From the NCBI GenBank assembly GCA_017452165.1, contig JAFTMY010000037.1:1-49254 (forward strand): a DNA stretch of 49,254 bases, read 5' to 3'. This DNA is from Clostridia bacterium (GTDB taxonomy: Bacteria; Bacillota; Clostridia; Christensenellales; UBA1242). Below are positions 15,653 to 38,405 of the stretch, piece by piece. The position numbers were made by a program, and so were the translations under genes. Numbering within the stretch: the stretch's first letter is position 1; each line of letters begins with the position of its first letter. Under the pieces are notes generated by a model that searched no databases, was not told the DNA's origin, and was given only the letters and a program-made list of their open reading frames with translations.

Positions 15653-15660
15653 CATAAAGT

Positions 15661-16287: not shown

Positions 16288-16373
16288 AAATAAGGCTCCT
16301 TTTGATACTATAATATAATAAACGATTTATTGTATCATTTTATTTGTATATTTTAATATTTTATTAAAAAAAT

Positions 16374-16555: not shown

Positions 16556-16629
16556 AAAAATGCTGTAAAAGTCTTTATAAATTTTTATTTATAAAGTATA
16601 ATAGAAATATTAATTTTATGGGAGATATT

Positions 16630-17637: not shown

Positions 17638-17639
17638 TT

Positions 17640-22357: not shown

Positions 22358-25156
22358 ATGGACGATTTTATAAAAATTATTGGAGCAAGAGAAAATAACT
22401 TAAAAAATGTAAGTTTAACAATACCTAGAAATAAACTTGTAGTCTTTACTGGACTATCAGGAAGTGGTAAAAGTAGCCTTGCATTTGATACAATATTTGC
22501 AGAAGGACAAAGAAGATATATGGAGTCTTTGTCTTCTTATGCAAGACAATTTTTAGGACAAATGAAAAAACCTGATGTTGACCAAATTGATGGATTATCT
22601 CCTGCAATTGCTATTGACCAAAAGACAACTTCTTCAAATCCTAGGTCAACAGTTGCGACAGTAACTGAAATTTATGACTATTTAAGACTTTTATTTGCTA
22701 ATATTGGTGTTCCTACTTGTATACATTGTGGAAAACCTATAAATGCTCTTTCAGTTGATCAAATAGTTAGACTTGTTATGGACTGTGAAGAAGGGACAAA
22801 ATTAATGATTATTGCTCCTGTTATTCGTGGAAAAAAGGGAGAATACAGAGAATTATTTGAAGATTTTAGAAAAAAAGGATTTGTTAGAGTTAAAGTTGAT
22901 GGCGAAGTAAAAACTCTTGATGAGGAAATAATTTTAGAAAAAAATAAAAAACATAATATATCAGTTGTTATTGATAGATTGAAAAATTCAGAATCTATAA
23001 AGGTGCGTCTTGGTGAGAGTATTGAGACGGCTTTAAAAATTGCTAATGGGCTTGTAATTGTAGATTTTAACGGCAATGAGGTGCTTTACTCAAATAAACA
23101 TAGTTGCCCTGATTGTGCATTTTCTTTTGATGAAATTTCATCAAGATTATTCAGTTTTAACACACCAATAGGTGCTTGCCCTGACTGCTCAGGTCTTGGA
23201 ACTAAAAATACAATTGAAGAAGATTTGATTGTTAAAAATTGGGATTTATCGTTAGAAGATGGTGCTATTTCACAACTTGGCTGGGGTGATTATGGTTTTG
23301 GTGGTATGGTTTTTAGGACAATATCTGAAAAATTTAATTTTAGATTAGATACACCACTAAAAGATATACCTAGAGAAGCACTTGATATGCTGTTTTATGG
23401 TTCAAATGGCGAAAAACTTGACTATGTAACAAAATACTATGATACTTGGTCAGGAAAATTTAATGGAATTATACCAAATTTATATAAAAGATACGAAACA
23501 GCAGGAAATTTCACTAAAAGTGAGATTGAAAAGTATATGGTTACAAAACCATGTAAAACTTGTCAAGGAAAAAGACTAAATCCTCAGGCACTTGCTGTTA
23601 AAATTGATGGAAAATCAATTATAGATGTAACTGACCTAAATGTGCTAAAAATCAAGGATTGGATAGAAAATTTAAAACTTTCTGAGAAGGAAAAGGCAAT
23701 ATCAAATAGTATTTTTAAAGAAATTAATGCAAGAGTTCAATTTTTAATCAATGTTGGACTTGATTATTTGACACTTTCACGAACGGCAAGCACACTTTCT
23801 GGTGGTGAAGCGCAAAGAATTAGACTTGCAAGTCAGATAGGCAGTGGACTTATGGGTGTTTTATATGTTTTAGATGAACCAAGCATTGGTCTTCATGCAA
23901 GAGATACTAATAAATTAATTGCAACCCTTAAGCATCTTAGAGATTTAGGTAATAGTGTAATTGTTGTTGAACATGATGAAGATACAATACGCTCAGCAGA
24001 TGTTGTTGTAGATGTTGGACAGAAGGCTGGAGTTCATGGTGGAGAAGTGGTAGCAGTCGGTTCTCCTAAGGAAATTGCAAAAAATAAAGAATCTTTAACA
24101 GGTGCATATTTGAGTGGGGAAAGAAAGATACTTGTGCCAGAAAATCGAAGAGTTATGTCAGACAAAATACTTGAAATTATCGGGGCTAAGCAGAATAATT
24201 TAAAAAATATCAATGTTAAAATACCACTTGGATTATTCGTTGCTGTAACCGGTGTTTCGGGTAGTGGAAAGTCAAGTTTAATCAATGAAATCCTTTATCC
24301 GGCACTTGCAAACAAAATTAATAAATCTTATTTGCCAGAGGGAAAATATGACGAAATAAAAGGTGTAGAACACTTAGATAAAATAGTTGTAATTGACCAA
24401 AGTCCAATTGGTAGAACTCCAAGAAGTAATGCTGTAACTTATACAGGAGTATTCTCTGCCATTAGAGAACTTTTTGCAAGTGTTCCTGAAGCAAAAGCAA
24501 AAGGTTATAGCGCAGGTCGATTTAGTTTCAATGTAAAAGGTGGTAGATGTGAAACTTGCTCGGGTGATGGTGTGCTTAAAATTGAAATGCACTTTTTACC
24601 TGATGTTTATGTTACTTGTGATGAATGTAAGGGTAAAAGATATAATAGTAACACCTTAGAAGTAAAATATAAGGGTAAAACTATCAGTGATGTTTTAAAT
24701 ATGACAGTTGAAGATGCTTTAGAATTTTTCTATAACTTGCCAAGTATTAGAAATAAACTTCAAACACTTTATGATGTGGGGCTTGGATATATTACGCTTG
24801 GTCAGCCAGCAACAACACTTTCTGGTGGGGAAGCACAAAGAGTAAAACTTGCAACAGAATTGTCAAAAAGACCAACTGGTAAAACAATTTATATTTTAGA
24901 TGAACCTACAACAGGTCTTCATTCATACGATATAGAAAAACTTGTTTCAATACTTCAAAGACTTGCTACTGGTGGCAATAGTGTTGTTGTTATTGAACAC
25001 AACCTTGATTTAATCAAGGTTGCCGATTATATTATCGACATTGGCCCTGAGGGTGGAGATAATGGTGGAACTATTGTTGCTACTGGAACTCCTGAAGAGA
25101 TTTCTAAAATTAATAAGTCTTATACAGGTAATGCCTTGAAACCTTATTTGAAATAA
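22358..25156 (+). CDS. uvrA: Excinuclease ABC subunit A
   Basis: GLSGSGKSSLAFDT, two LSGGEAQR signatures, CxxC zinc modules, GVSGSGKS. Confidence 0.98.
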   Translation: MDDFIKIIGARENNLKNVSLTIPRNKLVVFTGLSGSGKSSLAFDTIFAEGQRRYMESLSSYARQFLGQMKKPDVDQIDGLSPAIAIDQKTTSSNPRSTVATVTEIYDYLRLLFANIGVPTCIHCGKPINALSVDQIVRLVMDCEEGTKLMIIAPVIRGKKGEYRELFEDFRKKGFVRVKVDGEVKTLDEEIILEKNKKHNISVVIDRLKNSESIKVRLGESIETALKIANGLVIVDFNGNEVLYSNKHSCPDCAFSFDEISSRLFSFNTPIGACPDCSGLGTKNTIEEDLIVKNWDLSLEDGAISQLGWGDYGFGGMVFRTISEKFNFRLDTPLKDIPREALDMLFYGSNGEKLDYVTKYYDTWSGKFNGIIPNLYKRYETAGNFTKSEIEKYMVTKPCKTCQGKRLNPQALAVKIDGKSIIDVTDLNVLKIKDWIENLKLSEKEKAISNSIFKEINARVQFLINVGLDYLTLSRTASTLSGGEAQRIRLASQIGSGLMGVLYVLDEPSIGLHARDTNKLIATLKHLRDLGNSVIVVEHDEDTIRSADVVVDVGQKAGVHGGEVVAVGSPKEIAKNKESLTGAYLSGERKILVPENRRVMSDKILEIIGAKQNNLKNINVKIPLGLFVAVTGVSGSGKSSLINEILYPALANKINKSYLPEGKYDEIKGVEHLDKIVVIDQSPIGRTPRSNAVTYTGVFSAIRELFASVPEAKAKGYSAGRFSFNVKGGRCETCSGDGVLKIEMHFLPDVYVTCDECKGKRYNSNTLEVKYKGKTISDVLNMTVEDALEFFYNLPSIRNKLQTLYDVGLGYITLGQPATTLSGGEAQRVKLATELSKRPTGKTIYILDEPTTGLHSYDIEKLVSILQRLATGGNSVVVIEHNLDLIKVADYIIDIGPEGGDNGGTIVATGTPEEISKINKSYTGNALKPYLK

Positions 25157-25264
25157 ATTATGAAAATAATTAGTTAATAAATAAAAAATAAATGAAATTA
25201 TCACTATTTTAGTCTTAATTTCATCTTTTATTGATTAAATTTATAAATTAATTTATTAAAAACA

Positions 25265-25293
25265 TTGAATTGTTAAAAATAATGTGATATAAT
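25265..25293 (+). promoter_or_regulatory. SigA promoter, extended -10
   Basis: TTGAAT-17 bp-TATAAT with TGn. Confidence 0.6.
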
Positions 25294-25335
25294 ATACACA
25301 AATATGTTTAAAAGTTTCTAATAGGGGGCTTTGTT

Positions 25336-26376
25336 ATGAAAAGATTTATATTATTTATTCTTACCATTGCATTACTTGGTGGCATTGGTTATACTGGCTA
25401 TGTAATTTTTAGTTCAAAAAATATTTCTAAGGTTGAAATTGAGGGTAATGTTCAAACAATTTATTTGTTAAATGAAACTGATACTCCTGATTTTCAAGAT
25501 GCAAAACTTAAAATCACTTACAAAAGTGGCGATGTAAAATATCTTGATATGGCAACAATTGGTGAAAAAATCACTGTTGACAACTTTACAACATCACTTG
25601 AAGCAAGTGAAACTATGAAAATTACATATAAATCACAACTTATTACTATTGATTATAAGGTTATTAAATCTGGACTTTATTATATGAGTTTTAAAGAATC
25701 AACAACTTCAACTGGAAGCAAATCTACTCAAAGATATACTATTTCTAAAACTCAAAATTTTTATAATTTAGGTGAAGATGGTGTTTTAAAATATTATCAT
25801 TATGATGGAAATAAAGGTAAGTGGTTTTTGTATGATGGAAAATATTTAAAAAATTATAAGTATGAAATAGTAAATGATAAGGTTAATATTTATCTTGGTA
25901 GTGATAAACCATCTTATGGTCTTCAAGCAGAAGCAGTTAATGGTGAAATTGTTGTAACTTCAACAAATTACTTATATGATGGTGAGTTCCAAACTGGTAA
26001 AAATGTCTTTGGTTTTACTCAATATCAAATGAAAGATAATATAGAAATTACTTCAGCAAAACTTTATAGTGATAACTTTATTACTAATACAGATGTGTCT
26101 TCAGAAGAATATTTATCTTTCGTAGCAGGTGATAATTTAGACACTTCAAGTAATAGATTATACATAAAAGTTAACTATTCAAGTCCATTAATTTATACTG
26201 CGTCAGCATCAAATCCTACTCAAATGATTAATATGCTTGGCGAGGTTTATGTTGTTTTAGATAATTCTATGACAAATAATACACTTATGACAGCACTTGT
26301 TCGTCCTTATATTTCTACTTGTTATGTGTATTATGAGACTTGGACATTACCATTTAGTTACATTGTAGTTCCATAA
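25336..26376 (+). CDS. Exported/membrane-anchored protein with bacterial Ig-like domain
   Basis: N-terminal hydrophobic segment; TIY...DFQDAKLKITYKSGD...FTTS...KITY is typical of Big_3-like Ig domains. Confidence 0.7.
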   Translation: MKRFILFILTIALLGGIGYTGYVIFSSKNISKVEIEGNVQTIYLLNETDTPDFQDAKLKITYKSGDVKYLDMATIGEKITVDNFTTSLEASETMKITYKSQLITIDYKVIKSGLYYMSFKESTTSTGSKSTQRYTISKTQNFYNLGEDGVLKYYHYDGNKGKWFLYDGKYLKNYKYEIVNDKVNIYLGSDKPSYGLQAEAVNGEIVVTSTNYLYDGEFQTGKNVFGFTQYQMKDNIEITSAKLYSDNFITNTDVSSEEYLSFVAGDNLDTSSNRLYIKVNYSSPLIYTASASNPTQMINMLGEVYVVLDNSMTNNTLMTALVRPYISTCYVYYETWTLPFSYIVVP

Positions 26377-26400
26377 TTTTGTGGTTAATATAAAAGCAAC

Positions 26401-26440
26401 AAGAGTATGTTAAATTCAATATAAACATACTCTTTTTTTT
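26401..26440 (+). terminator. Intrinsic terminator
   Basis: AAGAGTATGTT...AACATACTCTT plus T tract. Confidence 0.8.
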
Positions 26441-26577
26441 GTGATAAAATTTAAAGAATTGGGTTGTTTTATAACTTAAATAAAAATTTTAACTATATAT
26501 AGTTAAATTATTAAAGAAGAATAAAAATAAATTGTGTGCAGATACTAAATAAAAAAAATAGTTATTAATAAAAATAA

Positions 26578-26639
26578 TTCGACAAAATTATATAAAATTA
26601 AGCATTATTGTTGCAATTGATACTGATTTGTATTATAAT
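26578..26639 (+). promoter_or_regulatory. SigA promoter with upstream Spo0A-box match
   Basis: TTGCAA(26611)-17 bp-TATAAT(26634); TTCGACA at 26578 is the reverse complement of TGTCGAA. Confidence 0.5.
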
Positions 26640-26671
26640 ATCTATACTATATTTGTTTTAGGAAGTAAAAA

Positions 26672-28111
26672 ATGTATCCAATTATTATTTTTGTGGCATC
26701 AATTTTGGTTATATGCCTTTCTTTATTGTGTTTTCATAAAAAAACTGATGACAAATTTAATAAGTTTTTAAAAATATTTACAATAACATTTTGTGCTATT
26801 GGTTTTTTTAGATTTTTTTTATCAGATTCATTTGTTTTTGTTATAAATGGTGCAAGTTTTAACGGCACATATTATGATGTTACCGATGTTCTACAAACTG
26901 TTCTTCGTTGGGGATATTACTTAAATTATGTAATACTTCCAATGGCTATTTTTTTTGATAGTAGACTTTTTAAAAATATTGCTTGCTATGTTTGTTTGTT
27001 TTTCTCATTACTTTCAGCAGTATTTTTTAATAATTATATGGAATATTTTTTATCTCCAAAAGGTCAAGGACTTCATTTATATGACTGGTTTAGATATTTC
27101 TATTTTATTTTAGAACTTGTGATGGCGATTTCGATTCCTGTTATTATGCAGGTTCGTCAAAAATATTTCTTTAATTATTTAGATAAAAAAGAGTGGGCTA
27201 ATTTCTTAATTTCGTTACCATTTATTGTAATTGCATTGATGCCAGCATATGTCCCACAATCATTAATTGGTTATTCATCTCTTATTCCAACAGTTGGTTC
27301 GGTGTATCATATTGGTTGGATAACCTTATCTGTTGTTTTAATAGTAGTGTTTTATCATATTTTTAGATTTAAAGATTATAAAACAAGATATATGTTTTGT
27401 GTTTTTTTAACTTTAGCATTGTTTTTCCATTATAATTCCATTTTCTTAATGGGTATTACAATACCTCGTTTACCAATTCAACTTTGTAATTTAGCGGCTT
27501 ATATTTATATAATTACTATTCCATTTAAACTTAAAAGAACTTTTCAGTTCAGTTATATTGTAAATATTGCAGGTGCTATAGTTGCTTATGTTGTTTCAGA
27601 CTTCTCAGGTGGTGCTTTTGGTTTTTGGAATATGCACTTTGTTTATGAACATACCTTTGTTTTAATGGTGCCTGCTCTTACAATGGCGTTAAGAGTTTTC
27701 CCAAGAGTTGAGAAAAAGTCACTTAAATATGCATTTATTGGTTTTTCAATATACTTTATTTTATGTTGGATAACCGGAACAATTTTAAATGGGTTTTCAG
27801 ATAAAATTGGAACAACTGTAAACTACTTTTTTATGTTCGACCTTAAAAAAGCCTTTGGTTTTTTCCCGTTTTTAACTTTTTCGGGAAATTATTATATTGA
27901 AATTGGTAGATTTATAATTTATCCTGTGGTTTCTCTTATAATTTATGTGGCATTTTCAATACTTTATTTGTTATTTTATGGATTTACTAGATTTATGTAT
28001 AAATATGAAGATGACCATATTGAACTTAGAAAATCGGGAATAGATTTATTAGAAAAAATGACAAAAAGGAAATTTAATATTCCTAGAGATTTCCAAAAAA
28101 CTAATGAGTAG
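26672..28111 (+). CDS. YwaF/TP0381/TMEM164-family polytopic membrane protein, internally duplicated
   Basis: LPIQLC272N, FVYEH327, NYFFM in the C-half; similar TM pattern without Cys/His in the N-half. Confidence 0.75.
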   Translation: MYPIIIFVASILVICLSLLCFHKKTDDKFNKFLKIFTITFCAIGFFRFFLSDSFVFVINGASFNGTYYDVTDVLQTVLRWGYYLNYVILPMAIFFDSRLFKNIACYVCLFFSLLSAVFFNNYMEYFLSPKGQGLHLYDWFRYFYFILELVMAISIPVIMQVRQKYFFNYLDKKEWANFLISLPFIVIALMPAYVPQSLIGYSSLIPTVGSVYHIGWITLSVVLIVVFYHIFRFKDYKTRYMFCVFLTLALFFHYNSIFLMGITIPRLPIQLCNLAAYIYIITIPFKLKRTFQFSYIVNIAGAIVAYVVSDFSGGAFGFWNMHFVYEHTFVLMVPALTMALRVFPRVEKKSLKYAFIGFSIYFILCWITGTILNGFSDKIGTTVNYFFMFDLKKAFGFFPFLTFSGNYYIEIGRFIIYPVVSLIIYVAFSILYLLFYGFTRFMYKYEDDHIELRKSGIDLLEKMTKRKFNIPRDFQKTNE

Positions 28112-28123
28112 GAGAAAATAGTC

Positions 28124-28867
28124 GTGTTAGTAGAAATTAAAAACTTAACTAAAAGTTATGGTAATTCGCAAGTAAAAGCAGTTGATGATTTATCAATTTC
28201 TTTAAATTCGGGTGAAATTTATGGTTTCCTTGGCTCAAATGGTGCAGGTAAAAGCACTACAATTAAGTGTTTAGTTGGAATTTATCCTTTTAATTCAGGT
28301 GATATTTTAGTCGATGGTGTTTCAATAAAATCAGACCCACTTAGCGCTAAAAAATTAATAGGTTATGTTTCAGATAATCACGCAGTTTTTGAGAGACTCA
28401 CAGGTAGAGAATATGTAAATCATATAGCAAACTTGTATAATGTAAAAGTTGAAGATATGCAATCTCGTTGTGATAAACTTCTTAAAATATTTAACCTTGA
28501 AAAACACTTTGATAAGCCAATTAAGAACTATTCACATGGTATGAAACAAAAAATAACAGTTATTGCAGCACTTGTTCATAACCCAAAACTTTGGGTTTTA
28601 GATGAACCATTGACTGGTCTTGACCCACAGAGCGCTTTCCAATTAAAAAAGGTTATGAGAGAACATGCAAATGAAGGAAATACTGTATTTTTCAGTTCAC
28701 ATATCTTAGACGTTGTTGAAAATCTTTGTGATAGATGTTGCATTATTGAGCAGGGTAAACTTAAAGGTGTTTATGATATAAATGAAATTAAAAACAATAA
28801 GCAATCGTTAGAAAAAATATTTATGAACGAAGTTTCAGAAGACTTGGAAGATGAAGGAGAGATGTAA
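28124..28867 (+). CDS. ABC transporter ATP-binding protein (exporter type)
   Basis: GSNGAGKST, YSHGMKQK, LDEPLTGLDP, FSSH; GTG start after AGGAG. Confidence 0.95.
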   Translation: MLVEIKNLTKSYGNSQVKAVDDLSISLNSGEIYGFLGSNGAGKSTTIKCLVGIYPFNSGDILVDGVSIKSDPLSAKKLIGYVSDNHAVFERLTGREYVNHIANLYNVKVEDMQSRCDKLLKIFNLEKHFDKPIKNYSHGMKQKITVIAALVHNPKLWVLDEPLTGLDPQSAFQLKKVMREHANEGNTVFFSSHILDVVENLCDRCCIIEQGKLKGVYDINEIKNNKQSLEKIFMNEVSEDLEDEGEM

Positions 28868-30468
28868 TGACAAATATTTTAAATCTTCTCAAACTTCAAA
28901 TTGACAACCAAACAGATATTTTAAAGACTAAAACTCCTAAAAAAATGTTAGTAGCGCTTTTTAAAGTTGTTTTACTTTTAGCATTTTTGGTTGTTTTATC
29001 ATGGTTTGTTGAATCAAAGATTTTTATACTTGGTATAAAAATAAATGCAGAACTTATTGGAATTATACTTTTAATTACACAAATTATTTCACTTCTTTTT
29101 TCAATAGGTCATATAATTAATACTTTGTATTTAAGTAAAGATAATGAAATGCTTATATGCTATCCTGTTACAGCAAATCAATTATTTATTTCAAAAATAC
29201 TTCTTATTTATTTAAAAGAAATTGCTGTGAATTCAATAATTACTCTTCCAATCTTTATTTGTTTAGGATTAATGGGAAAGTTAGGTGCAAGTTTTTTTCT
29301 TTCTTTAATTATATTTTTATTAGTTTTACCAATACTTCCAATTGTTTTGGCATCATTTATTAGTATTATTGTTATGATGATTACTAAATTTTTGAAAAAA
29401 CATACAATCTTAGCAATAATAACAATTTTATCGCTTGTTTCAGCCTGTATTATTTGTTACATATTACTTGTAGGTAATATTATGGAAACATTTAATATTG
29501 CAACAAAACAACTTGAAACTGTGAGAGAAATAAATAAAAATATAGAAATATTTGGTAAATATTTAGTTATTTATTATCAACTTGGGCTTGCTATGGTTAG
29601 TTTTAAAAAGTGGTATTATATTGGATTATTTATTCTTATTTGTGCTGTATTATTTATTATTACCATTTCAATTATTAAACCATTTTATTTAAAAGTTGCA
29701 ATGTCTAGCATGGAAAATAGTTCTAAAACTAAATACAAACAAGGAACGTTTAAAAGTTACAATCCTTTTTTAAGTTTAGTTTATAAGGAAATGAAATGTA
29801 TTTTCAGGTCTCCATCGGAAATTTTTGATTTCTTTTTGTTTACACTTCTTATGCCGTTTATTGTATTTTCCTATGACAAAATGCTTATGTCTATTACTGT
29901 AAATCAGGCAGGCGTTAATATGATTGCAGGTTCACACGTTATGGTTGTTGCAATACTTGCAATGTTATCTAATATTATTTCTGCTTCTGCTGTGTCTAGA
30001 GAAGGTCGTAATTTCTATATTTCAAAGGTTATTCCAGTTAATTATTATACACAGATTTTTGCAAAACTTACTTTTAATGTAATATTTACAATTGTTTCAT
30101 TATTTGTAACAATGATTATTTCATTTTTCATTTATCCAGTATGGCAAATAATTCTTGGAACTATTGCTGTAATGTTTTTTTCAATAGGACATGCAGCGCT
30201 TAGCATTGATATGGATATTAAAAAACCAGCCAGAAACTTTGAAGGTGATGGTAAGTCTTCTAGTGTAAGTAAAAGCACAACTGCTAGTATTATATATGCT
30301 TTATTGTTTGGATTTTTAATTGGTTTTATTATTATATTAATGTCTTCTTATGAAAAAGTCGTTGTTCCTTATCTTATAATTGTTGCTATTGGACTTGTGT
30401 TTATGCTTTATAGACTTTATATTTTAGTCCTTAGAATCAATTTACAATATGATAAAATAGAAATGTAG
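28867..30468 (+). CDS. Putative ABC-2 type exporter permease
   Basis: Many TM segments; LYLSKDNEMLICYPV....FISK, KEMKCIFR, SREG...K.IPV; TAATG overlap with the ATPase gene. Confidence 0.85.
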   Translation: MTNILNLLKLQIDNQTDILKTKTPKKMLVALFKVVLLLAFLVVLSWFVESKIFILGIKINAELIGIILLITQIISLLFSIGHIINTLYLSKDNEMLICYPVTANQLFISKILLIYLKEIAVNSIITLPIFICLGLMGKLGASFFLSLIIFLLVLPILPIVLASFISIIVMMITKFLKKHTILAIITILSLVSACIICYILLVGNIMETFNIATKQLETVREINKNIEIFGKYLVIYYQLGLAMVSFKKWYYIGLFILICAVLFIITISIIKPFYLKVAMSSMENSSKTKYKQGTFKSYNPFLSLVYKEMKCIFRSPSEIFDFFLFTLLMPFIVFSYDKMLMSITVNQAGVNMIAGSHVMVVAILAMLSNIISASAVSREGRNFYISKVIPVNYYTQIFAKLTFNVIFTIVSLFVTMIISFFIYPVWQIILGTIAVMFFSIGHAALSIDMDIKKPARNFEGDGKSSSVSKSTTASIIYALLFGFLIGFIIILMSSYEKVVVPYLIIVAIGLVFMLYRLYILVLRINLQYDKIEM

Positions 30469-30478
30469 GTGAGGTGTT

Positions 30479-31399
30479 ATGAAGAAAACGGTAATTATAA
30501 TTTTAGCCATACTACCAATATTTTTAGTTATAACAATTTCATTTGCAGGAAAAATTTTATCTTTATATCAACACATTGCCGTTGAAAAAGTTAGATTTGT
30601 AGATGAAAGTAATAAAGAATTTGAACCAGACTATATTTTAGTTTTAAGTGTGGGGGAAGAAAAACAAACAAATGTAAGAGTTTATCCAGACCTTGCATCT
30701 AATAAAAAAGTTACATATATTTCAGACAATGAGAGTGTTTGCACTGTAAATCAAGAAGGAGTGGTTAAAGGTGTTTCATTTGGAACTTCTGCAATCATTG
30801 TTAAAACTGAAGAGGGAAGCAAAACTACTATGCTTGTCGTAAAAGTAACTCAAGATAAGGTTTTAGGTGTAACTCTTTCTCATGAGACATTAGATCTAAA
30901 AATAGGTGAAAGTAAAGTATTAACTGCAACTGTAGAAGCGTATGTTGCTCTTAATAAAAAAGTAATTTTTACTTCTAATGATGAAACAGTTGCTACTGTT
31001 AATGCAAATGGAAAAGTTGAAGCGGTTGGTATTGGTCAAGCAATAATAACTGTAACAACAGAAGATGGTGGTTTTACTGATACTTGCGTGGTAACTTGTA
31101 TAGAAGGTATTCCAGCACTTCAATTTGATTTATCAAATGATAGTAATTTCGTAAAAAGCGGAAAAGGATATATTGTGTATATTAAAGAAATCGACTTACT
31201 TAATTATTTAAAGTTTGACGATAAAAAGGTTGATATACAAGAAATTAAGTTCAGAATCAAGTCAGGTGGTAGTTCTGCTAGTTTAACTGGTGATAAACTA
31301 ACAATAACTGGTAAGGGCATTATAACAGTTGTTGCTTATGTTGGAGAGCAAAATGATCCAACATATCAAACAGAATTACGTATGATGATTCAAGATTGA
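30479..31399 (+). CDS. Membrane-anchored protein with Big_2 Ig-like domains
   Basis: N-terminal TM; ASNKKVTYISDNESVCTVNQEG.V, SNDETVATVNANGKVEAVGIGQAIITVTTEDGG. Confidence 0.9.
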   Translation: MKKTVIIILAILPIFLVITISFAGKILSLYQHIAVEKVRFVDESNKEFEPDYILVLSVGEEKQTNVRVYPDLASNKKVTYISDNESVCTVNQEGVVKGVSFGTSAIIVKTEEGSKTTMLVVKVTQDKVLGVTLSHETLDLKIGESKVLTATVEAYVALNKKVIFTSNDETVATVNANGKVEAVGIGQAIITVTTEDGGFTDTCVVTCIEGIPALQFDLSNDSNFVKSGKGYIVYIKEIDLLNYLKFDDKKVDIQEIKFRIKSGGSSASLTGDKLTITGKGIITVVAYVGEQNDPTYQTELRMMIQD

Positions 31400-31452
31400 T
31401 TAATAATTTAATCAAAATTTACTCAAACTAAAAAATATCAAAGGAGAAAAAT

Positions 31453-34400
31453 ATGGGGATTTTAAAGAAATTTTCTTTGCTACTTTGCTGTTTTATGATG
31501 ATGTTTACATTTACAGCATGTGGTGGAGGCGAAAAAAGTTTAATTCTTTCATCAGATAAAGATTTCGCTTATCGTGGTGATGTTGTAACTTTCTCAGTAA
31601 ATTTAAAAGATGAGAAAGATAAAACATACACAGTAGAAGAAGTTGTTTATGAAATTGTATCTGGTGGCGAATATGCAACTATTAGTGGAAATACTTTAAC
31701 AATCAAAGATGATGCATTGCCAGGTGCTGTAGTTGAAGTTATTGCTAAAGCAGAAGAAAAAGTTTCAAATAAAGTTAAAGTTGAAGTTAATGTGCCACTT
31801 ACAGACATTGTTATATCTGCAAATGGTTTAACTAACATTGAAGCAGGCGATTTTGTTCCTTTAACAATGGAACTTAATCCTGAAATTTCAAATGTTTCAA
31901 AAGATGATATTAAATGGGTAATCGTTGAAGGTGCAGATCTTTGCATTATTTCAAATGATATTCTTTTTGTAAACAAAAATGCTTCAACAAATGAAGTTAT
32001 AAAAATTAAAGCTCAATCTAACACCTTATCAAGTAATGTTTTAACATTTACTGTTGGTTATGCTCTTGAAAAGATTGAGTTAGATGTTGTTGGTTCATTA
32101 AGTATTGAACCAGGTAATTCAAGAGCCTTAAAAACAACACTTACACCATCTAATGCTACTGATGTAAACATTGAATGGGTGTTTAGTGAAGGTCAAAATT
32201 ATTGCTCAATTTCTAATAATATCATTACTATTAATGATGATGTTGAAATTGGAACAATTATTAAAGTTAAGGCAAAAAGTGGCTCAGTAGAAAGTGAAGA
32301 AATCACAATTATTGTTGGAACTCCTGTGACTAAGATTATAATTAGTGCTGTTGGAGCAGATAAAGTTATCACAACAAACACAGTTTCATTAAATGCAAGT
32401 GTAGAACCACAAAATGCTTCTACTGTTGGTATTGAATGGAGTGTTACAGAAGGCAAGCAATATGCTCAAGTTGTTAATAATACACTTGTTATTAAGTCAG
32501 AAACTCCATATGGAACAATTATTAAGGTAAAAGCAAAGAGTGGTTTAGTTGTAAGTGAAAATGAACTTTCAGTTCAATATGGTGTTGCTGTAACATCTGT
32601 TACAATTGACACTGTTGGTTCTCTTGAAGTTATTACAAACAATACAATTGGTTTAAATGCAGTTGTAAACCCAGTTGATGCAACAGAAAAGACTATTAAT
32701 TGGAAAGTGACACAAGGTAGTGAGTATGCTGAAATTTCAAATAATGCACTCGTAGTAAAAGCAGGAACACCTTATGGAACAATAATTAAAGTAAAAGCAA
32801 CATGTGATGGCATTGAAAGTAATGAACTTTCAGTTCAATATGGTATTAAATTAAAATCTCTTGAATTAAATGTTTCAGGTTCATCAAATATTGAACCAGG
32901 AAACACAAGAGCACTCTTAACAACTCTCACACCAGAAAATGCAACAAATGTTGTTGTTGAATGGGTAACACTTGAAGGTGAAGGTTTATTCTCAATTTCA
33001 AATAACATCATATCAATTAATAGTGATGCTGAAATTGGTTCAAAAATCAGATTAAAAGCAAAGAGTGGCACAGTAGAAAGTAACGAAATCACAATCATTG
33101 TCGGAACACCTATTACAAAAATTACAATTAGTGCTGTTGGTGTAGATAAAATAATCACAACAAATACAGTATCATTAAATGTAAGTGTAGAACCACAAAA
33201 TGCAAGTGCTATAGGTGTAAACTGGAAAGTAACACAAGGAAGTGAATATGCAGAAGTTGTAAATAACACACTTGTAATAAAAGCAGGAACACCTTATGGA
33301 ACAATTATAAAAGTAAAAGCAGAAAGCGGAACACTTGAAAGTGAAAACGAACTTGAATTCCAATATGGTGTAAAAGTAGCATCTGTAGTAATTAATACTG
33401 CTGGTTCACTTGAGGTTATTCATGTAAATACAGTAGGTCTTAATGCTACTATAAGCCCATCAAATGCAACAGAAAAAACTGTTACTTGGAGTGTTACTGA
33501 AAACAGTGAATATGCAGAAATTTCAAACAATGCACTCGTAGTAAAAGAAGGAACACCTTATGGAACAATAATTAAAATAAAAGCAACAGTTGATGGCGTA
33601 GAAAGTAATGAACTTTCAGTTCAATATGGCGTTGCAGTAACATCTGTTACAATTAGTGCAACAAGTGAAGTAATTGTAAGTGGTAATACAGTAGGTTTAA
33701 ATGCAGTTGTTAATCCTTCAAATGCGACAGAAAAAACTGTTTCTTGGATGGTAATTCAAGGTGCAAATAATGCTGACATTGTAAATAATACACTTGTAGT
33801 AAAAGCAGGAACACCTTATGGAACAATAATTAAAGTAAAAGCAATATGTGATGGCGTAGAAAGTAATGAACTTTCAGTTCAATATGGTATCGCAGTAAGT
33901 TCTGTTGTAATTAGTCCTGCAGGTTCTCTTGAAGTTATAAAAGGTAATTCAGTAGGTTTAAGCGCTGTTATTAATCCATCAGATGCAACAGAAAAAACTG
34001 TTTCTTGGACAATTACAGAAGGAAGTTCTTATGCTGATATTGTATCTAATACTCTTGTTGTAAAAGCAAATGCTGAAACTGGTGCTATAATAGTAGTTAA
34101 AGCAACAGTTGATGGCGTAGAAAGTAATGAACTTGAATTTGTAGTAAAAGCAACTAAAGAAGAAGAAAATGCATCTAAATTTATGATTAATGTTTCTGAA
34201 GAAAATATTAAACTTGATAAAAATGCAAACTTCTCTCCAGTTTTAGAGGTTGAACTTTATGACTATAACTTTGAGCCTGTAACAGATAAAGTTATTACTT
34301 ATAAAATTGTTGAGGGTGAAGAGTTTTTAGCAATTTCTCCTAATGGTTATAACTGTAATTTTGAAATTCTTGGACATGGAAATGCAACATTAGAAGTTGG

Positions 34401-35982
34401 TATTCAAGGTTATAGTGAAAAGACAATAGTAAATGTAAGTGTTGTCTTACCACCAGAAAAGATAAACATTCCTGAAGTATTTACTGAGAGAACAGGTTAT
34501 GTGTATAATTTCTCTAAGTTAAATCCAAGCAACTCAGCAGTTGAAACTCTTCCATTTATTGCAACTGCTACAGGTACAAATGTTTGTCAAGATATAAAAT
34601 ATACATTTATGCATGAAGACGGAACAAGTGGTGATTTAGTTGCTACTTGGAACGATGGAAGAATTACATTTAATAAAACAGGTAAAATAACTGTTATTAT
34701 TTCATCAGATTCTGGTAGTAGAATTGAAACAACAACATCTTATTCATTTAATATTAATGAAGGATTTAATGTTTATACATTTGAAGAACTTCAAGCATTA
34801 GCATTAAGTTCTAAATATAACGGACAACCAATTAACATTGTTGTTTTAGAAAGACCTGATGGTAGTGCAAATAACTATGAATATGGTTTTGATTTAGTTT
34901 CACCTGCAGGTTTAAAGGCTAAATTAGAGCAAACCTTTGATGATGTATTTACAGCGAAAGGTGGATTTGCAAATGGTCAAAGAATTAACTTTGTTTGCAA
35001 GAGTGTTCATATTAATGGTAATAAGCACAAAATTGACCTTTCTCAAGTAAGAAAAATTAAAAAAGAAGAAATTGAACCATTAGTTGCAAATGGAAGACTT
35101 ACTGCTGATTGGAAGAATTTTGATGCTCTTATTTCAATTATTCCTTGGACAAATGATACAAATGTTATTTTAAAAGGTTCTTATGAAGCAAAAATTTATG
35201 ACTTTGAAGTTGTAGGAAATTGCTCAGTAGACCATGGTTCTACAGAAGATGGAGGAGAATTTTCTGGAACAAAGCCATTTGGTGTTGTTTCAACAGGTAT
35301 AACAATTGGCGCTATGGGACATGAAGTTAAATATTATGTTGATATTAATAATCTTACAACATCAGGTTTAAGAACTGGTTTATCTGTTAAAAAGGTTGTT
35401 GGTAATGGTTTAGTTCAAAATATTCATGCATATAACTGCTTTACAAATGGCATTGAAGTTGGTGCATCTATTGTTAGATTAAAGAATTTAAAATTCGGTA
35501 GTTGTGGTGCTGCTTCAATTGAGTTACTTCCAGCGGATTCAAATGCAGCAGGTGAAAATTTTGATCAAAAACAAAATGTTTCATTTGAAGGATATATGGA
35601 TGTTGAGCAAAACTTAAATAATGGTAATACAACATATTTTGCTAATTATCAAGTTTTAGGAACTACAATACCATCAGTAGTTGAGGGATTACTTACTCAA
35701 TATGATGTAACACAAGGTTCTCATATGAGAAATGAAAAGGGTGAATATATATTTGTTTGCTTTAATTTAGCAGATATGACAACATTCTATCCAAATCATT
35801 CAACTTATAATTATCCTGCATTCCAAGAAGGTGGTATTATAAATGCAAGAGATTTACCAAAAGATGGAAACGCAGTGGATACAACTCATCAATATATTGA
35901 ACTTGATGTTGACCTTACATTTATGGGTGGAAGCAATATTGGTAAAGCAATTCTTTACAACCATCATTATCAAGGCAATTAA
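31453..35982 (+). CDS. Large lipoprotein with tandem Big_2-like Ig repeats and C-terminal beta-helix-like domain
   Basis: Lipobox FTA-C23; about 10 units of ~87 aa ending IKVKA...SNEL; C-terminal GFNVYTFEEL...SVHINGNKHKID. Confidence 0.85.
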   Translation: MGILKKFSLLLCCFMMMFTFTACGGGEKSLILSSDKDFAYRGDVVTFSVNLKDEKDKTYTVEEVVYEIVSGGEYATISGNTLTIKDDALPGAVVEVIAKAEEKVSNKVKVEVNVPLTDIVISANGLTNIEAGDFVPLTMELNPEISNVSKDDIKWVIVEGADLCIISNDILFVNKNASTNEVIKIKAQSNTLSSNVLTFTVGYALEKIELDVVGSLSIEPGNSRALKTTLTPSNATDVNIEWVFSEGQNYCSISNNIITINDDVEIGTIIKVKAKSGSVESEEITIIVGTPVTKIIISAVGADKVITTNTVSLNASVEPQNASTVGIEWSVTEGKQYAQVVNNTLVIKSETPYGTIIKVKAKSGLVVSENELSVQYGVAVTSVTIDTVGSLEVITNNTIGLNAVVNPVDATEKTINWKVTQGSEYAEISNNALVVKAGTPYGTIIKVKATCDGIESNELSVQYGIKLKSLELNVSGSSNIEPGNTRALLTTLTPENATNVVVEWVTLEGEGLFSISNNIISINSDAEIGSKIRLKAKSGTVESNEITIIVGTPITKITISAVGVDKIITTNTVSLNVSVEPQNASAIGVNWKVTQGSEYAEVVNNTLVIKAGTPYGTIIKVKAESGTLESENELEFQYGVKVASVVINTAGSLEVIHVNTVGLNATISPSNATEKTVTWSVTENSEYAEISNNALVVKEGTPYGTIIKIKATVDGVESNELSVQYGVAVTSVTISATSEVIVSGNTVGLNAVVNPSNATEKTVSWMVIQGANNADIVNNTLVVKAGTPYGTIIKVKAICDGVESNELSVQYGIAVSSVVISPAGSLEVIKGNSVGLSAVINPSDATEKTVSWTITEGSSYADIVSNTLVVKANAETGAIIVVKATVDGVESNELEFVVKATKEEENASKFMINVSEENIKLDKNANFSPVLEVELYDYNFEPVTDKVITYKIVEGEEFLAISPNGYNCNFEILGHGNATLEVGIQGYSEKTIVNVSVVLPPEKINIPEVFTERTGYVYNFSKLNPSNSAVETLPFIATATGTNVCQDIKYTFMHEDGTSGDLVATWNDGRITFNKTGKITVIISSDSGSRIETTTSYSFNINEGFNVYTFEELQALALSSKYNGQPINIVVLERPDGSANNYEYGFDLVSPAGLKAKLEQTFDDVFTAKGGFANGQRINFVCKSVHINGNKHKIDLSQVRKIKKEEIEPLVANGRLTADWKNFDALISIIPWTNDTNVILKGSYEAKIYDFEVVGNCSVDHGSTEDGGEFSGTKPFGVVSTGITIGAMGHEVKYYVDINNLTTSGLRTGLSVKKVVGNGLVQNIHAYNCFTNGIEVGASIVRLKNLKFGSCGAASIELLPADSNAAGENFDQKQNVSFEGYMDVEQNLNNGNTTYFANYQVLGTTIPSVVEGLLTQYDVTQGSHMRNEKGEYIFVCFNLADMTTFYPNHSTYNYPAFQEGGIINARDLPKDGNAVDTTHQYIELDVDLTFMGGSNIGKAILYNHHYQGN
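32060..34150 (+). repeat. Intragenic ~260-bp Ig-domain repeats with a 786-bp higher-order duplication
   Basis: ATTGAACCAGG at 32104 and 32890; GGAACACCTTATGGAACAAT and GAAAGTAATGAACTT recur. Confidence 0.85.
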
Positions 35983-36014
35983 TAAATTTAAACAATTAAA
36001 TTTGTTTTCCAAAT

Positions 36015-36055
36015 AATAAAAAATAGTTTACTTTTTTAGTAAACTATTTTTTATT
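36015..36055 (+). terminator. Intrinsic terminator
   Basis: AATAAAAAATAGTTTAC...GTAAACTATTTTTTATT. Confidence 0.85.
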
Positions 36056-36138
36056 GCAAACTATATAAAAAATTTAATTTTGGCATAATAAAAATTATAA
36101 TTATGTATTATTTTTATTTTTTAATCAATAATTAATGT

Positions 36139-36861
36139 ATGGCAATAATGGCAATAAGGTCAATAATTATATATTTTTGTGTTATTATCGTGATTAGGCT
36201 TATGGGAAAAAGGCAAATTGGTGAAATGCAACCGTTTGAGTTTGTAATAACTTTGATTATTGCTGACCTTGCGTGTATTCCAATGGCAGAACTTTCAGTT
36301 CCACTTGTTCACGGAATTGTTCCCATAATAACACTTTTAATTTTTCATTTTTTGATATGTGTGATAGCACGAAAATCTTTGTTTGCTAGATATTTAATCT
36401 CTGGTAGACCTGCAATAGTAATTAGTCCAAAGGGCATAAATTATAACGAATTAAAATCACTTAATATGACACTTGATGATTTAATGGAACTTATTCGTGG
36501 TTGTGATGTTTTTAAAATTGAAGAAATTGCTTATGCTATTTTAGAAACAAACGGCAAACTTTGTATCTTAAAAAAGGCAGAAACTGAGCCTGTTACAAGA
36601 GATGATTTAAACATAAATGTAACTGAAAATTCTTTACCTATAAATCTTGTTATGGACGGACAATTAATGGACGATAATATGAAAATTGCTGGTGTAAATA
36701 GAGAATTTATTGACATTTACTTAGAAAAGTCAGAGATAAAAAAGATAAAAGAAGTGCTTTTAATGACTCTTGATAAAAGTGGTCTTGTTTTTATTCAAGG
36801 AAAATTTGGAGACAAATATTATACTTTTCAATCTGATTTTCAAGGTGGTGAAAAGTGGTAA
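36139..36861 (+). CDS. DUF421 (YetF-like) membrane protein
   Basis: RLMGKRQIGEMQPFEFVIT, AILETNGKL, LVMDG. Confidence 0.92.
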   Translation: MAIMAIRSIIIYFCVIIVIRLMGKRQIGEMQPFEFVITLIIADLACIPMAELSVPLVHGIVPIITLLIFHFLICVIARKSLFARYLISGRPAIVISPKGINYNELKSLNMTLDDLMELIRGCDVFKIEEIAYAILETNGKLCILKKAETEPVTRDDLNINVTENSLPINLVMDGQLMDDNMKIAGVNREFIDIYLEKSEIKKIKEVLLMTLDKSGLVFIQGKFGDKYYTFQSDFQGGEKW

Positions 36862-37250
36862 AGAAATGGGTAGTAATGGTTGCTTTGACTATAATTTTAG
36901 TTGTGGGGTGTGTTTATGAATCAAAATATATTCACTCGTCATTTTCAGGTCTTATTAATTCACTTGAAACACTTCAAATCGAAATTACAGAAAATAAAGA
37001 AAAGATTGATACAGAAGAACTTATAACTAAATCTTATAATCTTCATGATAAATGGCATAAAAGTATTAGAGGAATTAAGTGTATGATTTGGCATACTGGA
37101 GTAAAAGATATTGAAGTAGGTTTTGCTAGAATTGCCGCTTATGTTGAAGAAAATGAGTATGCTGACGCTTATGCAGAGATTGCTTCGCTAATTGATTATA
37201 TAGCACATTATTTAGATGATTTTAAAATATCAATAGAAAATGTTTTATAG
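36855..37250 (+). CDS. DUF4363-like protein
   Basis: N-terminal TM, W...HTGVKDIE, C-terminal SIENVL; usual partner of DUF421. Confidence 0.75.
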   Translation: MVKKWVVMVALTIILVVGCVYESKYIHSSFSGLINSLETLQIEITENKEKIDTEELITKSYNLHDKWHKSIRGIKCMIWHTGVKDIEVGFARIAAYVEENEYADAYAEIASLIDYIAHYLDDFKISIENVL

Positions 37251-37280
37251 AATATAAAATTCTAAAATATAATCAGTGAA

Positions 37281-37315
37281 AAAAAAGAACCCTATTATAA
37301 ATAGAGTTCTTTTTT
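37281..37315. terminator. Bidirectional intrinsic terminator
   Basis: AAAAAAGAACCCTATT...AATAGAGTTCTTTTTT. Confidence 0.75.
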
Positions 37316-37322
37316 ATGTTTT

Positions 37323-38405
37323 TTATAATCCAAATTCATTACCACTAAATGATTTGTTTTGTTTTTTATCATTAAAAGATAAAGAGTTAAATACCTCGTT
37401 GAGATGTTGTTTATCCCAACTAATTAAAAAGTTAATAAGTGTATCTTTTGGGCAATTATTTAATTCAGCAAGTTTAAGAAGCATTGATAATTCTTCTTTA
37501 GTTGTTGTTGAATAAGGGGAGTCGATAACTGAAATAAATGTATTAAAAACTTCGCCTTTACTTACAAAATTAGATGAAATAAACTCATAGATTTGATTTT
37601 TTAGATTATCATCACAACCTAAAAGAACTAATGAGCCAATTCTACAATTAAATCTATTTTCATATGCAAATCTTTCATTAGACATTGGACTACAGTTCTT
37701 TGTGTCATTGATAAATTCTTGTTTTATTTTATCAAAAGCATCATAAATAAAATTAGGATTTTGACTTAAAAATGAATTAATTTGTGTAGTTGCACGGACA
37801 TTATCTAAATTTTCTCTATCCCATCTTAGTTGAACTTGGTTAATACATCTATCAATTAATCTCTTAGTGCTGTTTTGAGATGGTTGTGTTTTTGTGATAT
37901 TATTTAAAGAATTAAACAATTCCATTGCACATTCACTACCAACATCTCGTGCTTGCTTTTCTTTTTGTGATGTGTAGTAAAATAAAAAAGGGCTTATTCC
38001 TAAAATTTCTGGTGGCATAAATCTTTCATCACCATAACATCTTTCAAATGGAAACTTTGCAGGTTTTGAAGTTCCAATTCTTTTTTTATCATTAGTTTTA
38101 TCTTGATGAATGTGTGTAAGTTCATGATAAATTGTTGAAACAGTTTTAAATAAGGTATTTTTGTCCATTTTTCTTAGGTTAAGTGTTACAGTGTTGTCCA
38201 TAGAAGAAGCAAAACCTAAGTTATTCTTTTCATCATTAACAAATTTTAGTTTACAATCAGGGCTATTTAATTGTTTTTTTGCTATTTCAAAAAGTTCAAT
38301 AGCAAAATTTTTAAAGGTCTCATTTTCCATATGAGGCTGTGTATTTAAAATATCAAAACATTTTTGATAATCATTTAATGTTGCTTTATTCCAAATTTTT
38401 TCCAT
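37323..38405 (-). CDS. Hypothetical HExxH zinc metallopeptidase-like protein without signal peptide
   Basis: TIYH94ELTH98IHQ, downstream Y....EKQAR, upstream LGFA...TVTLN strands. Confidence 0.7.
   Translation of the reverse strand: MEKIWNKATLNDYQKCFDILNTQPHMENETFKNFAIELFEIAKKQLNSPDCKLKFVNDEKNNLGFASSMDNTVTLNLRKMDKNTLFKTVSTIYHELTHIHQDKTNDKKRIGTSKPAKFPFERCYGDERFMPPEILGISPFLFYYTSQKEKQARDVGSECAMELFNSLNNITKTQPSQNSTKRLIDRCINQVQLRWDRENLDNVRATTQINSFLSQNPNFIYDAFDKIKQEFINDTKNCSPMSNERFAYENRFNCRIGSLVLLGCDDNLKNQIYEFISSNFVSKGEVFNTFISVIDSPYSTTTKEELSMLLKLAELNNCPKDTLINFLISWDKQHLNEVFNSLSFNDKKQNKSFSGNEFGL

Follow-up and report, generated by a model that had tools for sequence, protein, structure and literature searches.

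A conserved five-gene module of Clostridia joins a TMEM164/YwaF-type membrane protein to an ABC-2-type exporter, an immunoglobulin-like protein and a stalked lipoprotein

We analysed a 49,254-nucleotide stretch of chromosomal DNA from a Clostridia bacterium (GenBank assembly GCA_017452165.1, contig JAFTMY010000037.1), with a G+C content of ~28%; this whole stretch is hereafter called the window. It carries five adjacent genes that encode, in order, a membrane protein of the TMEM164/YwaF type, the ATPase and the permease of an ATP-binding cassette (ABC) exporter, a membrane-anchored protein with immunoglobulin-like (Ig) domains, and a large lipoprotein that holds a beta-helix head on an Ig stalk. 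The module is inherited as a unit among uncultured Clostridia, and we consider it very probable that the five genes form one functional module. All its parts come from known families, and it is the combination that is new: an ABC system with an intramembrane acyltransferase-type domain, which in one clade has fixed Ig and lipoprotein partners. An original prediction, made by a model from the letters of this DNA, had described five same-strand genes separated by 12, −1, 10 and 53 bp, and the coordinates of the open reading frames (ORFs) agree with it exactly:

26672 to 28111, + strand: gene 1, 479 aa
28124 to 28867, + strand: gene 2, 247 aa
28867 to 30468, + strand: gene 3, 533 aa
30479 to 31399, + strand: gene 4, 306 aa
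31453 to 35982, + strand: gene 5, 1509 aa

The conservation of the module was evaluated by scanning genomes with an alignment of 23 gene-1 homologues, which gave 72 pattern matches, 31 of them encoding a relative, at 30 distinct loci. All 30 loci are in metagenome-assembled genomes, labelled Christensenellaceae, Eubacteriales, Oscillospiraceae, Ruminococcus, Candidatus Scatosoma or Clostridia. Searching these other species-level genomes with the window's proteins (tblastn), we found genes 1 to 4 in the same order in 30/30 loci and the head of gene 5 in 29/30; at the remaining locus (L007) the contig ends inside gene 4. When the 505 ORFs of the 30 loci and the window were clustered, only the five module families were present in more than 3 of the 31 sources (31, 31, 30, 28 and 28, respectively). 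The shortfalls have two causes: L007, and the ORF filter, by which shadow ORFs of the opposite strand were retained at a few loci. Conversely, each flanking family occurs in at most 3 of the 31 sources. After two of the 78 flanking ORFs were left out as shadows of gene 5, the other 76 were scanned against Pfam and code for unrelated housekeeping functions (LigD/Ku, NeuB, SpoVAC, SpoVT, BipA and others). The co-occurrence of the five families, which the original prediction had put forward as a check, is borne out by these results, with flanks that are not shared. Furthermore, the pairwise identities of the five proteins co-vary (Spearman 0.49–0.81 over the 26 sources in which all five are called). 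That the five genes are kept in 30 other genomes indicates that they are real genes and not chance ORFs. A mobile element was also considered and rejected, since no transposase or integrase is present among the 76 flanking ORFs scanned.

It is reasonable to ask if the genes are neighbours by descent only, with no shared function. Indeed, the carriers of the 30 loci form a single group of related uncultured Clostridia, with gene 1 identity of 46–59%, and ancestry alone can preserve gene order. However, the flanks are reshuffled in nearly every genome and the five genes are still together, genes 2 and 3 overlap, and genes 1 and 2 are fused in 115 of the best 120 relatives described below. We consider this explanation close to refuted.

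The carriers are uncultured Clostridia, several of them from sheep, goat or roe-deer gut samples according to the genome labels. SpoVAC or SpoVT genes lie in the flanks of three related loci (L003, L007 and L010); together with the YetF gene near the module, they suggest that the carriers form spores.

The relation between genes 1 and 2 emerges from their longer relatives. A structure search of the Atlas with residues 1–208 of gene 1 returned its own family and a cluster of 745-aa proteins, in which ABC_tran is present in 100% and TMEM164 in 98%. Coherently, 115 of the best 120 longer relatives of gene 2 (54–61% identity to gene 2, most of them 700–790 aa long) have the TMEM164 family PF14808 and the ABC ATPase family PF00005 in one chain; in two of them, P0278 and P0350, both domains were confirmed by Pfam. 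By blastp, gene 1 is matched by 115 of these best 120 proteins at 21–33% identity, the matching part always being N-terminal to the ATPase, and 58 of the 120 cover more than 400 of its 479 residues. Over 108 proteins of fusion length, the median length of the membrane part is 480 aa, the same as in gene 1. The fusion proteins come from Clostridia, Bacilli and Acholeplasmataceae assemblies (two are named Acholeplasmataceae), and some are labelled by their sources as ‘YwaF family protein’ or ‘ATP-binding cassette domain-containing protein’.

A FastTree phylogeny of the ATPase part was rooted with a stand-alone ATPase from Bacillus. It groups all 31 split forms with four ‘ATPase-first’ proteins in a single clade (support 0.996) that lies within the fusions. 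With the sequences sampled and this root, the split appears as the derived state, and genes 1 and 2 can be read as the split form of a widespread YwaF–ATPase fusion. The fusion of two parts in one chain is, at the sequence level, strong evidence that they work in one complex. Since most relatives are fused, the acyltransferase-like protein would belong to the ABC machine, and we regard it as probable that it is physically part of the ABC complex.

Some members of the split-ATPase clade have other partners. In P0306, a single cluster with 31 members, the ATPase shares its chain with a cytoplasmic GNAT acetyltransferase domain, which would fit the loading of a donor at the inner face. In P0287–P0289, three further ATPases of the clade, a C-terminal tail of ~220 aa replaces the membrane domain; the tail of P0287 is acidic and of low complexity. 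A GNAT ORF also lies in the window, 4 kb downstream of the module (40123–41244, + strand, 373 aa), and its orthologues are ~0.8 kb upstream of gene 1 in 2/30 loci (8078–9190 in L026 and 6819–7931 in L030). It has no blastp match (E 1e-3) to any of the best 120 gene-2 relatives, P0306 included, and its link to the module, adjacent in 3 of the 31 sources only, is a weak lead.

Gene 1 itself matches the Pfam family TMEM164 (PF14808) over residues 213–409 (E 5.2e-13, 49.5 bits with a cut-off of 25), and this family is present in all 120 gene-1 homologues listed. The AlphaFold2 model (predicted local distance difference test, pLDDT, 85.6; predicted template modelling score, pTM, 0.87) contains 13 membrane helices and a long C-terminal helix. 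The features of the protein are as follows:

Gene 1 residues 1–205, + strand: N-terminal six-helix domain, family-specific
Gene 1 residues ~206–438, + strand: seven-helix TMEM164/YwaF-type core (AlphaFold2 helix list, PF14808)
Gene 1 residues 439–479, + strand: conserved tail helix, predicted to be cytoplasmic (AlphaFold2 helix list, loop charges)
27485 to 27487, + strand: codon of Cys272, the presumed acyl-accepting nucleophile, in LPIQLC (motif P-x-[Q/H]-x-C-N)
27650 to 27652, + strand: codon of His327, the presumed catalytic or metal-binding histidine, in YEH

The last seven helices are a TMEM164/YwaF-type domain, of the ATGY superfamily, with an invariant Cys/His pair. The residues lie where the original prediction had placed them (LPIQLC272 and YEH327), and each is invariant in 23/23 aligned split forms. 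Taking the counts over 108 fusion-length proteins, Cys272 is kept in 107/108, His327 and Gly301 in 108/108, Pro268 in 107/108 and Asn273 in 104/108, and position 270 is His in 101/108 of these fused relatives and Gln in the window's clade. In the model, Cys272 stands at the start (first turn) of helix 268–285, and His322 and His327 in the first third of helix 318–339. The spacing from Cys272 to His327 is 55 residues, versus 58 between C123 and H181 in TMEM164.

The members of the ATGY superfamily are described as membrane enzymes that transfer or hydrolyse acyl groups, in which the His is invariant and the nucleophile varies (10.1101/2022.07.06.498872). A member with a solved structure is human TMEM164 (PF14808; structure 9lw1), which shares with gene 1 the Pfam family, the seven-helix core, the Cys nucleophile, a Gly ~30 residues past the Cys (G155, corresponding to G301 in gene 1) and a His ~55 residues past it. 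According to the cryo-electron microscopy report, TMEM164 forms an acyl-Cys123 thioester, and C123, G155 and H181 are all essential (PMC12830759). Unlike gene 1, TMEM164 is a dimer of seven transmembrane helices without an ATPase, which moves C20:4 chains between phospholipids. The motif around the nucleophile also differs, being N-P-C-H in TMEM164, P-x-Q-x-C-N in gene 1 and P-x-H-x-C-N in the fused relatives.

A word-based search for short canonical YwaF relatives gave six matches, every one of them a fragment of the long form, and gene 1 is best described, on its sequence, as a distinct long ABC-linked subfamily. Its N-terminal domain has no Pfam match and no usable Atlas feature match, and its structural neighbours outside its own family all have a template modelling (TM) score below 0.45. 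An internal duplication of gene 1 was considered and discarded (hhalign of the two halves, probability 0.6%).

The number of Lys and Arg residues per loop (mean over 23 sequences) alternates regularly across the 13 helices, reaching 8.4 in the tail. By the positive-inside rule, the N-terminus would be outside and the C-terminus inside, with the Cys/His pair probably within the outer-leaflet half of the membrane, and we are moderately confident that the active site faces outward. A C-terminus inside the cell fits an ATPase fused at that end.

Gene 2 matches ABC_tran (PF00005, E 1.2e-28). Its best NCBIfam models are DrrA and GldA, with the lantibiotic-protection ATPase and PmtA also among the best, all below their cut-offs; indeed, no NCBIfam model reaches its cut-off for either gene 2 or gene 3. 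Among solved structures, the nearest are the ATPase domains of ABCA exporters, the Thermotoga ABC ATPase 1vpl, LptB and NosF: the matches to ABCA4, ABCA1, ABCA3 and ABCA7 reach ~220 bits when the two matching stretches, each on one ATPase domain of these chains, are added up, and that to NosF 116.9 bits. Gene 3 matches PF16949 just over the cut-off (29.8 vs 25.7 bits), a family found in 21/23 of the gene-3 orthologues scanned, and has ~11–12 transmembrane helices by hydropathy, with short loops only. It has no match among PDB sequences, and a composition of two related halves found no support (hhalign 0.5%). No solute-binding protein is present among the five conserved families. These features point to an ABC-2-type exporter, with an ABC_tran ATPase, an ABC-2-related multi-pass permease and no binding protein.

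The sole gene-3 relative in the plasmid collection, which otherwise gave generic ATPase matches only, lies in a 5.5-Mb record of Bacillus sp. N5-665 and matches both PF16949 and PF01061 (ABC2_membrane). Here the pair of an ATPase and a PF16949 permease has no YwaF, Ig or lipoprotein gene beside it, which suggests that the exporter has a job of its own and that the exporter pair is the older, self-sufficient unit. The record (NZ_CP093325.1, 2088000–2112000, our locus L031) is labelled ‘plasmid p1’ and, being 5.5 Mb long with 25 annotated features, looks like a misfiled chromosome.

The stand-alone pair and the below-cut-off matches to DrrA, the lantibiotic-protection ATPase and PmtA would both fit a resistance or immunity pump, in which genes 2 and 3 export a toxic peptide or a drug and the remaining three encode accessory or simply co-regulated envelope proteins. 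However, such a pump leaves the fusion with an acyltransferase-type domain unexplained, and genes for bacteriocins, lantibiotics or regulators do not recur around the module. Furthermore, the PADLOC models of anti-phage defence gave no match for genes 1, 3, 4 and 5, and generic ATPase matches only for gene 2. We consider a pump very improbable.

Gene 4 is bitopic: one N-terminal transmembrane helix is followed by two Big_2-type Ig domains and a C-terminal Ig-like domain. The Big_2 family (PF02368, cut-off 22.8 bits) scores 83.4 bits in gene 4 and 61.1 bits in gene 5. In an alignment of the window's protein with 27 orthologues, the best conserved part of gene 4 is not the ectodomain (30–50% column identity) but residues 1–40, the transmembrane helix and its juxtamembrane segment (64–73%), as would be expected of a helix packed against specific membrane partners. 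Moreover, the C-terminal domain of gene 4 matches domain 1 of gene 5, in the membrane-proximal part of the stalk (hhalign 94.8%, E 5e-8). The parts of gene 5 are as follows:

31453 to 31521, + strand: signal peptide and lipobox FTAC, with the predicted lipidated Cys23
31522 to 34764, + strand: base and stalk, with the conserved membrane-proximal part, ~10 Ig repeats and two conserved Ig-like domains
34765 to 35982, + strand: head, a right-handed beta-helix of pectin-lyase-like fold (AlphaFold2, Foldseek, Atlas)

From its signal peptide and lipobox, gene 5 is predicted to be a lipoprotein. A lipobox-like Cys after a hydrophobic stretch is present in 30/30 orthologues (29 loci and the window), and an lgt gene is present in the window at 5087–5875. 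The stalk contains ~10 tandem repeats of ~87 aa each, with a DNA period of 258 bp. The first ~290 residues align in most orthologues, whose length ranges from 769 to 1728 aa, which indicates that the length of the stalk is free to vary and that the base and the head are kept. At the DNA level, the repeats at 33245–34134 (258-bp period) are 76–77% matched, which suggests that the stalk grew by recent tandem duplication and fits the two-fold range of orthologue lengths.

The AlphaFold2 model of residues 961–1509 (23 sequences; pLDDT 87.2, pTM 0.86) shows two Ig-like sandwiches and then stacked short strands. Compared with PDB structures by Foldseek, its best matches are Ig domains, followed by the snake adenovirus LH3 and the Klebsiella K1 capsule lyase (E ~8e-3). 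Among predicted viral structures it matches a Bacillus phage tailspike (E 1.4e-5) and pectin-lyase-fold proteins, with TM scores of only 0.16–0.29. The Atlas places residues 1100–1509 beside ‘right-handed parallel beta-helix’ clusters (0.95), and these neighbours carry the NosD Pfam family together with Beta_helix. The window's own head (the C-terminal part of ~550 aa) has no Pfam match at E up to 0.01, the NosD model included, and 23 head orthologues gave Pectate_lyase_5 in two and Beta_helix in one, all weak. The head has no match among PDB sequences and no tblastn match in phage genomes. Its profile finds 197 representatives at 50% identity (E up to 0.001) in 1.84 billion proteins; among the 150 matches listed, the head is at the C-terminal end wherever the match is full-length (~600–1730 aa), and the others are short fragments. 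On the model, the head appears to be a clade-restricted beta-helix, with the fold of glycan-cleaving or glycan-binding proteins, outside any named family. The variable stalk and the beta-helix head suggest contact with glycans away from the cell. The original prediction had already named an exporter-type ABC pair in genes 2 and 3, a membrane-anchored Big_2 protein in gene 4, and in gene 5 a lipoprotein with an Ig stalk and a beta-helix-like tip; all three assignments hold on the evidence given above.

A beta-helix beside an ABC-2-type exporter and a lipoprotein recalls the NosDFY–NosL system of copper-site assembly, in which an ABC-2-type ATPase and a permease work with an external beta-helix protein and a lipoprotein. 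By analogy with it, and with FtsEX, the ABC complex could transport nothing at all: ATP would move the products of genes 4 and 5 and switch the activity or the binding of the beta-helix. The parts correspond one to one (NosF as ABC-2-type ATPase, NosY as permease, NosD as beta-helix, NosL as lipoprotein), gene 2 has NosF among its relatives of known structure, and the Atlas neighbours of the head include the NosD family. Nevertheless, the likeness is limited to this parts list and a generic ATPase similarity. NosD sits on the permease, whereas the module's beta-helix is at the tip of a long stalk; a head at the far end of a stalk that varies about two-fold argues against a fixed mechanical link, and the window's head matches neither NosD nor any other Pfam family at the threshold used. 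Moreover, NosDFY–NosL has no acyltransferase, and a purely mechanical complex gives the invariant Cys/His pair of gene 1 no role. We regard this alternative as improbable.

A second type of known system, the peptidase-containing ABC transporters, joins an enzyme domain and ABC parts in one polypeptide, with catalysis coupled to export. Their enzyme domain is a C39 peptidase, soluble and cytoplasmic, carried by a type-IV exporter, whereas here a 13-helix intramembrane acyltransferase-type domain is fused to an ABC-2-type ATPase and the permease is a separate gene. The couple formed by Lnt and LolCDE in diderms is also similar in outline, as a Cys-thioester acyltransferase acts on lipoproteins, which are then handled by an ABC system. 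However, Lnt is of the nitrilase type and LolCDE of the MacB type, with folds unrelated to those of the module; they are separate proteins, and the destination is the outer membrane, which the carriers of the module are assumed to lack.

The comparison with LolCDE bears on a further explanation, in which gene 1 is a hydrolase (as in AIG1/ADTRP) that removes acyl chains from the anchor of the lipoprotein, and the exporter extracts the protein for shedding or for transfer to the wall. LolC and LolE have an extracytoplasmic domain, and gene 3, with its short loops only, has nothing similar; moreover, a conserved membrane-anchored gene 4 suggests retention over release. The ATGY superfamily does include hydrolases with the same nucleophile/His pair, although the nucleophile of gene 1 is a Cys, as in the transferase branches, and AIG1-type hydrolases are described as using Thr (10.1101/2022.07.06.498872). 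In the cryo-electron microscopy report, the acyl-Cys intermediate of TMEM164 is hydrolysed in the absence of an acceptor (PMC12830759). On balance, we see little probability in a hydrolase.

The closest precedent for an acyl transfer outside the cell is Bacillus subtilis LhaT (YpjA), reported to N-acetylate lipoproteins at the outer face of the membrane, with a donor, acetyl-heptaprenylglycerol, that is made in the cytosol (PMC12345273). Like gene 1, LhaT is described as an integral membrane transferase of the ATGY superfamily, and the pathways resemble each other in that the substrate is a lipoprotein N-terminus and a lipid donor loaded in the cytosol must reach the outer leaflet; the authors state that the route of the lipid-linked acetyl donor across the membrane is unclear (PMC12345273). 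The two differ in several respects. LhaT, of the DUF1405/YpjA branch, is predicted to have six helices, whereas gene 1, of the TMEM164/YwaF branch, has 13. LhaT is described as acting on lipoproteins in general, and its three required genes are at three separate loci, with no ABC partner or donor transporter identified (PMC12345273). No PcrB or YvoF-type gene was seen among the 27 window ORFs scanned.

An acyl relay through the exporter and gene 1 is proposed because the operon unites a lipid-type exporter, an attached ATGY enzyme that would face outward, and a lipoprotein. Tentatively, the exporter would present a lipid acyl donor to the outward-facing acyltransferase, and the acceptor would be extracytoplasmic. 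By analogy, the gene-5 lipoprotein is the most likely acceptor, an assignment that is itself a possibility held with reserve. More explicitly, a lipid may receive an acyl group at the cytoplasmic face, or the donor may be an ordinary lipid of the membrane. The exporter would spend ATP to move or lift the donor lipid to the outer leaflet and pass it to the attached acyltransferase, where Cys272 would accept the acyl group as a thioester and transfer it to the acceptor outside the membrane, most probably the free N-terminal amine of Cys23 of gene 5. Gene 4 may be a docking subunit, with its transmembrane helix in the membrane complex and its related Ig domains holding the base of the lipoprotein, and the conserved cytoplasmic tail helix of gene 1 would lead into the ATPase. 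The lipoprotein would then display a glycan-binding or glycan-cleaving beta-helix head on a stalk that varies among species. It is a more doubtful proposition that the YwaF–ATPase fusion is the core of a new class of ABC machines in Bacillota, an ATP-driven transmembrane acyl relay that acylates external proteins or polymers.

The original prediction had read the locus as a single machine, and that part is strengthened by the fusion of genes 1 and 2 and by the precedent of LhaT. Its three substrate claims (the lipoprotein as acceptor, a lipid or glycan captured at a distance, and a phospholipid as donor) are supported by no result.

Several observations weigh against the acyl relay, the first being that no result pinpoints the donor or the acceptor. 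Concerning gene 1, its score is below the cut-off of the NCBIfam model TIGR02206 for the TP0381/YwaF subfamily (38 vs 75 bits), its family profile has no match among PDB sequences, and its outward orientation has the positive-inside rule as sole basis. The fold comparison is also weak: the TMEM164 structure 9lw1_A is at rank 32 (E 0.79, TM score 0.45 by target, 280 columns), despite having the highest probability (0.72) in the list of fold matches. The stand-alone exporter pair of Bacillus sp. N5-665 is a further point of this kind. The head family, with its 197 representatives, is far smaller than the fusion family appears to be, and gene 5 may accordingly be a clade-specific add-on or client. 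To our knowledge, the lipoprotein-modifying enzymes Lnt, LnsAB and Lit are not described as ATP-dependent. The same holds, as far as is known, for Lnb, a further enzyme of lipoprotein N-acylation (PMC11573676), and for LhaT (PMC12345273). Finally, a general lipoprotein-modifying enzyme is not expected in an operon with a single client.

The main competitor of the acyl relay is the remodelling and export of lipids or glycolipids. Here acyl chains would be moved between lipids, or onto a glycolipid or polymer, and the exporter would move the substrate or the product. The Ig protein and the lipoprotein would not be substrates; they would use or bind the product, or the head would work on an external glycan. 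Several results are in line with this: among solved structures the ATPase is nearest to the lipid exporters ABCA4, ABCA1, ABCA3 and ABCA7, and the fusion proteins make up a far larger family than the gene-5 proteins do. Furthermore, the Acholeplasmataceae are wall-less, and if the two fusions named Acholeplasmataceae come from wall-less cells, the core acts on the membrane and not on the wall. TMEM164 itself is described as a lipid-to-lipid transacylase (10.1101/2022.07.06.498872; PMC12830759). However, this explanation does not account for the lipoprotein and the Ig protein being kept with the core in 30/30 genomes, nor for the transmembrane helix of gene 4 being its best conserved part, and no lipid-synthesis gene recurs beside the module. 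We consider it unlikely, although it deserves attention.

Regarding the locus, the window ORFs scanned include uvrB and uvrA upstream of the module, with lgt further upstream, and a DUF421/DUF4363 pair downstream. A Shine-Dalgarno-like purine run is present ahead of every one of the five starts, and genes 2 and 3 are joined by a TAATG overlap. The signals around the module are as follows:

26401 to 26442, + strand: hairpin (26401–26434) and U run of the upstream ORF, −11.4 kcal/mol, z −3.1
26611 to 26639, + strand: promoter-like TTGCAA-17 nt-TATAAT ahead of gene 1, 10/12 matches
36014 to 36056, + strand: intrinsic-terminator-like hairpin, a 19-bp A/U-rich stem then a U run, −18.2 kcal/mol, z −7.3

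For both hairpins, 0/200 shuffles fold as well. The first ends the ORF at 25336–26376 and sets the module apart on its 5′ side; the second is consistent with the strong terminator claimed by the original prediction. The terminator scanner, which demands three G–C pairs, for this reason reported no site at 36014–36056. The promoter-like matches in 25000–37500 are not enriched (73 found versus 82.5 ± 10.2 expected from shuffles), and equal-scoring + strand matches occur within the operon, with first hexamers at 27407, 27484, 29088, 29392, 32315 and 34480. A single promoter for the five genes is consequently plausible from layout and position only. No leader RNA was found by Rfam ahead of gene 1, the sole match in the window being an unrelated T-box leader.

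This T-box leader (15483–15653, − strand; RF00230, 119 bits) precedes a class II aminoacyl-tRNA synthetase ORF (14002–15384, − strand). Next to it, at 15703–19442, there is a second, different ABC system, composed of a TetR regulator (15703–16287, − strand), an ATPase (16618–17637) and a MacB_PCD/FtsX permease (17640–19442). The module is bordered by two ORFs without a Pfam match, at 25336–26376 (+ strand, 346 aa, with an N-terminal hydrophobic segment) and 37323–38405 (− strand, 360 aa), neither of which is kept beside it in other loci. The YetF-type DUF421 and DUF4363 genes downstream are at 36139–37250. Further on, a 2281-aa ORF (41710–48555, − strand) has no Pfam match, is rich in Ser, Asn, Thr and Lys, and has an N-terminal hydrophobic segment; it is unrelated to gene 5 and resembles a second giant secreted or surface protein.

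The original prediction knew of no described system of this composition, and the literature searches agree: within their reach (few subscription journals and no supplements), no ABC-linked YwaF protein and no such five-gene system was found. On YwaF/PF14808 as this protein family they returned the TMEM164 preprint only, on TIGR02206 nothing, and on PF16949 one unrelated paper.

Bacterial YwaF/TMEM164-type proteins have been without a known function, and a large subfamily of them now has a firm ABC context. The passage of acyl groups to the exterior of the cell is an open problem, as for the donor of LhaT. If the acyl relay were true, it would provide the ‘flippase plus transferase’ step that extracellular acylation is missing, and it would become a candidate for the N-acylation of lipoproteins in Bacillota without Lnt. 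In Mycoplasma genitalium too, the enzyme that triacylates lipoproteins is stated to be unknown in a review (PMC9262362), and there is no evidence for the presence of this family there. The module is small, self-contained and expressible.

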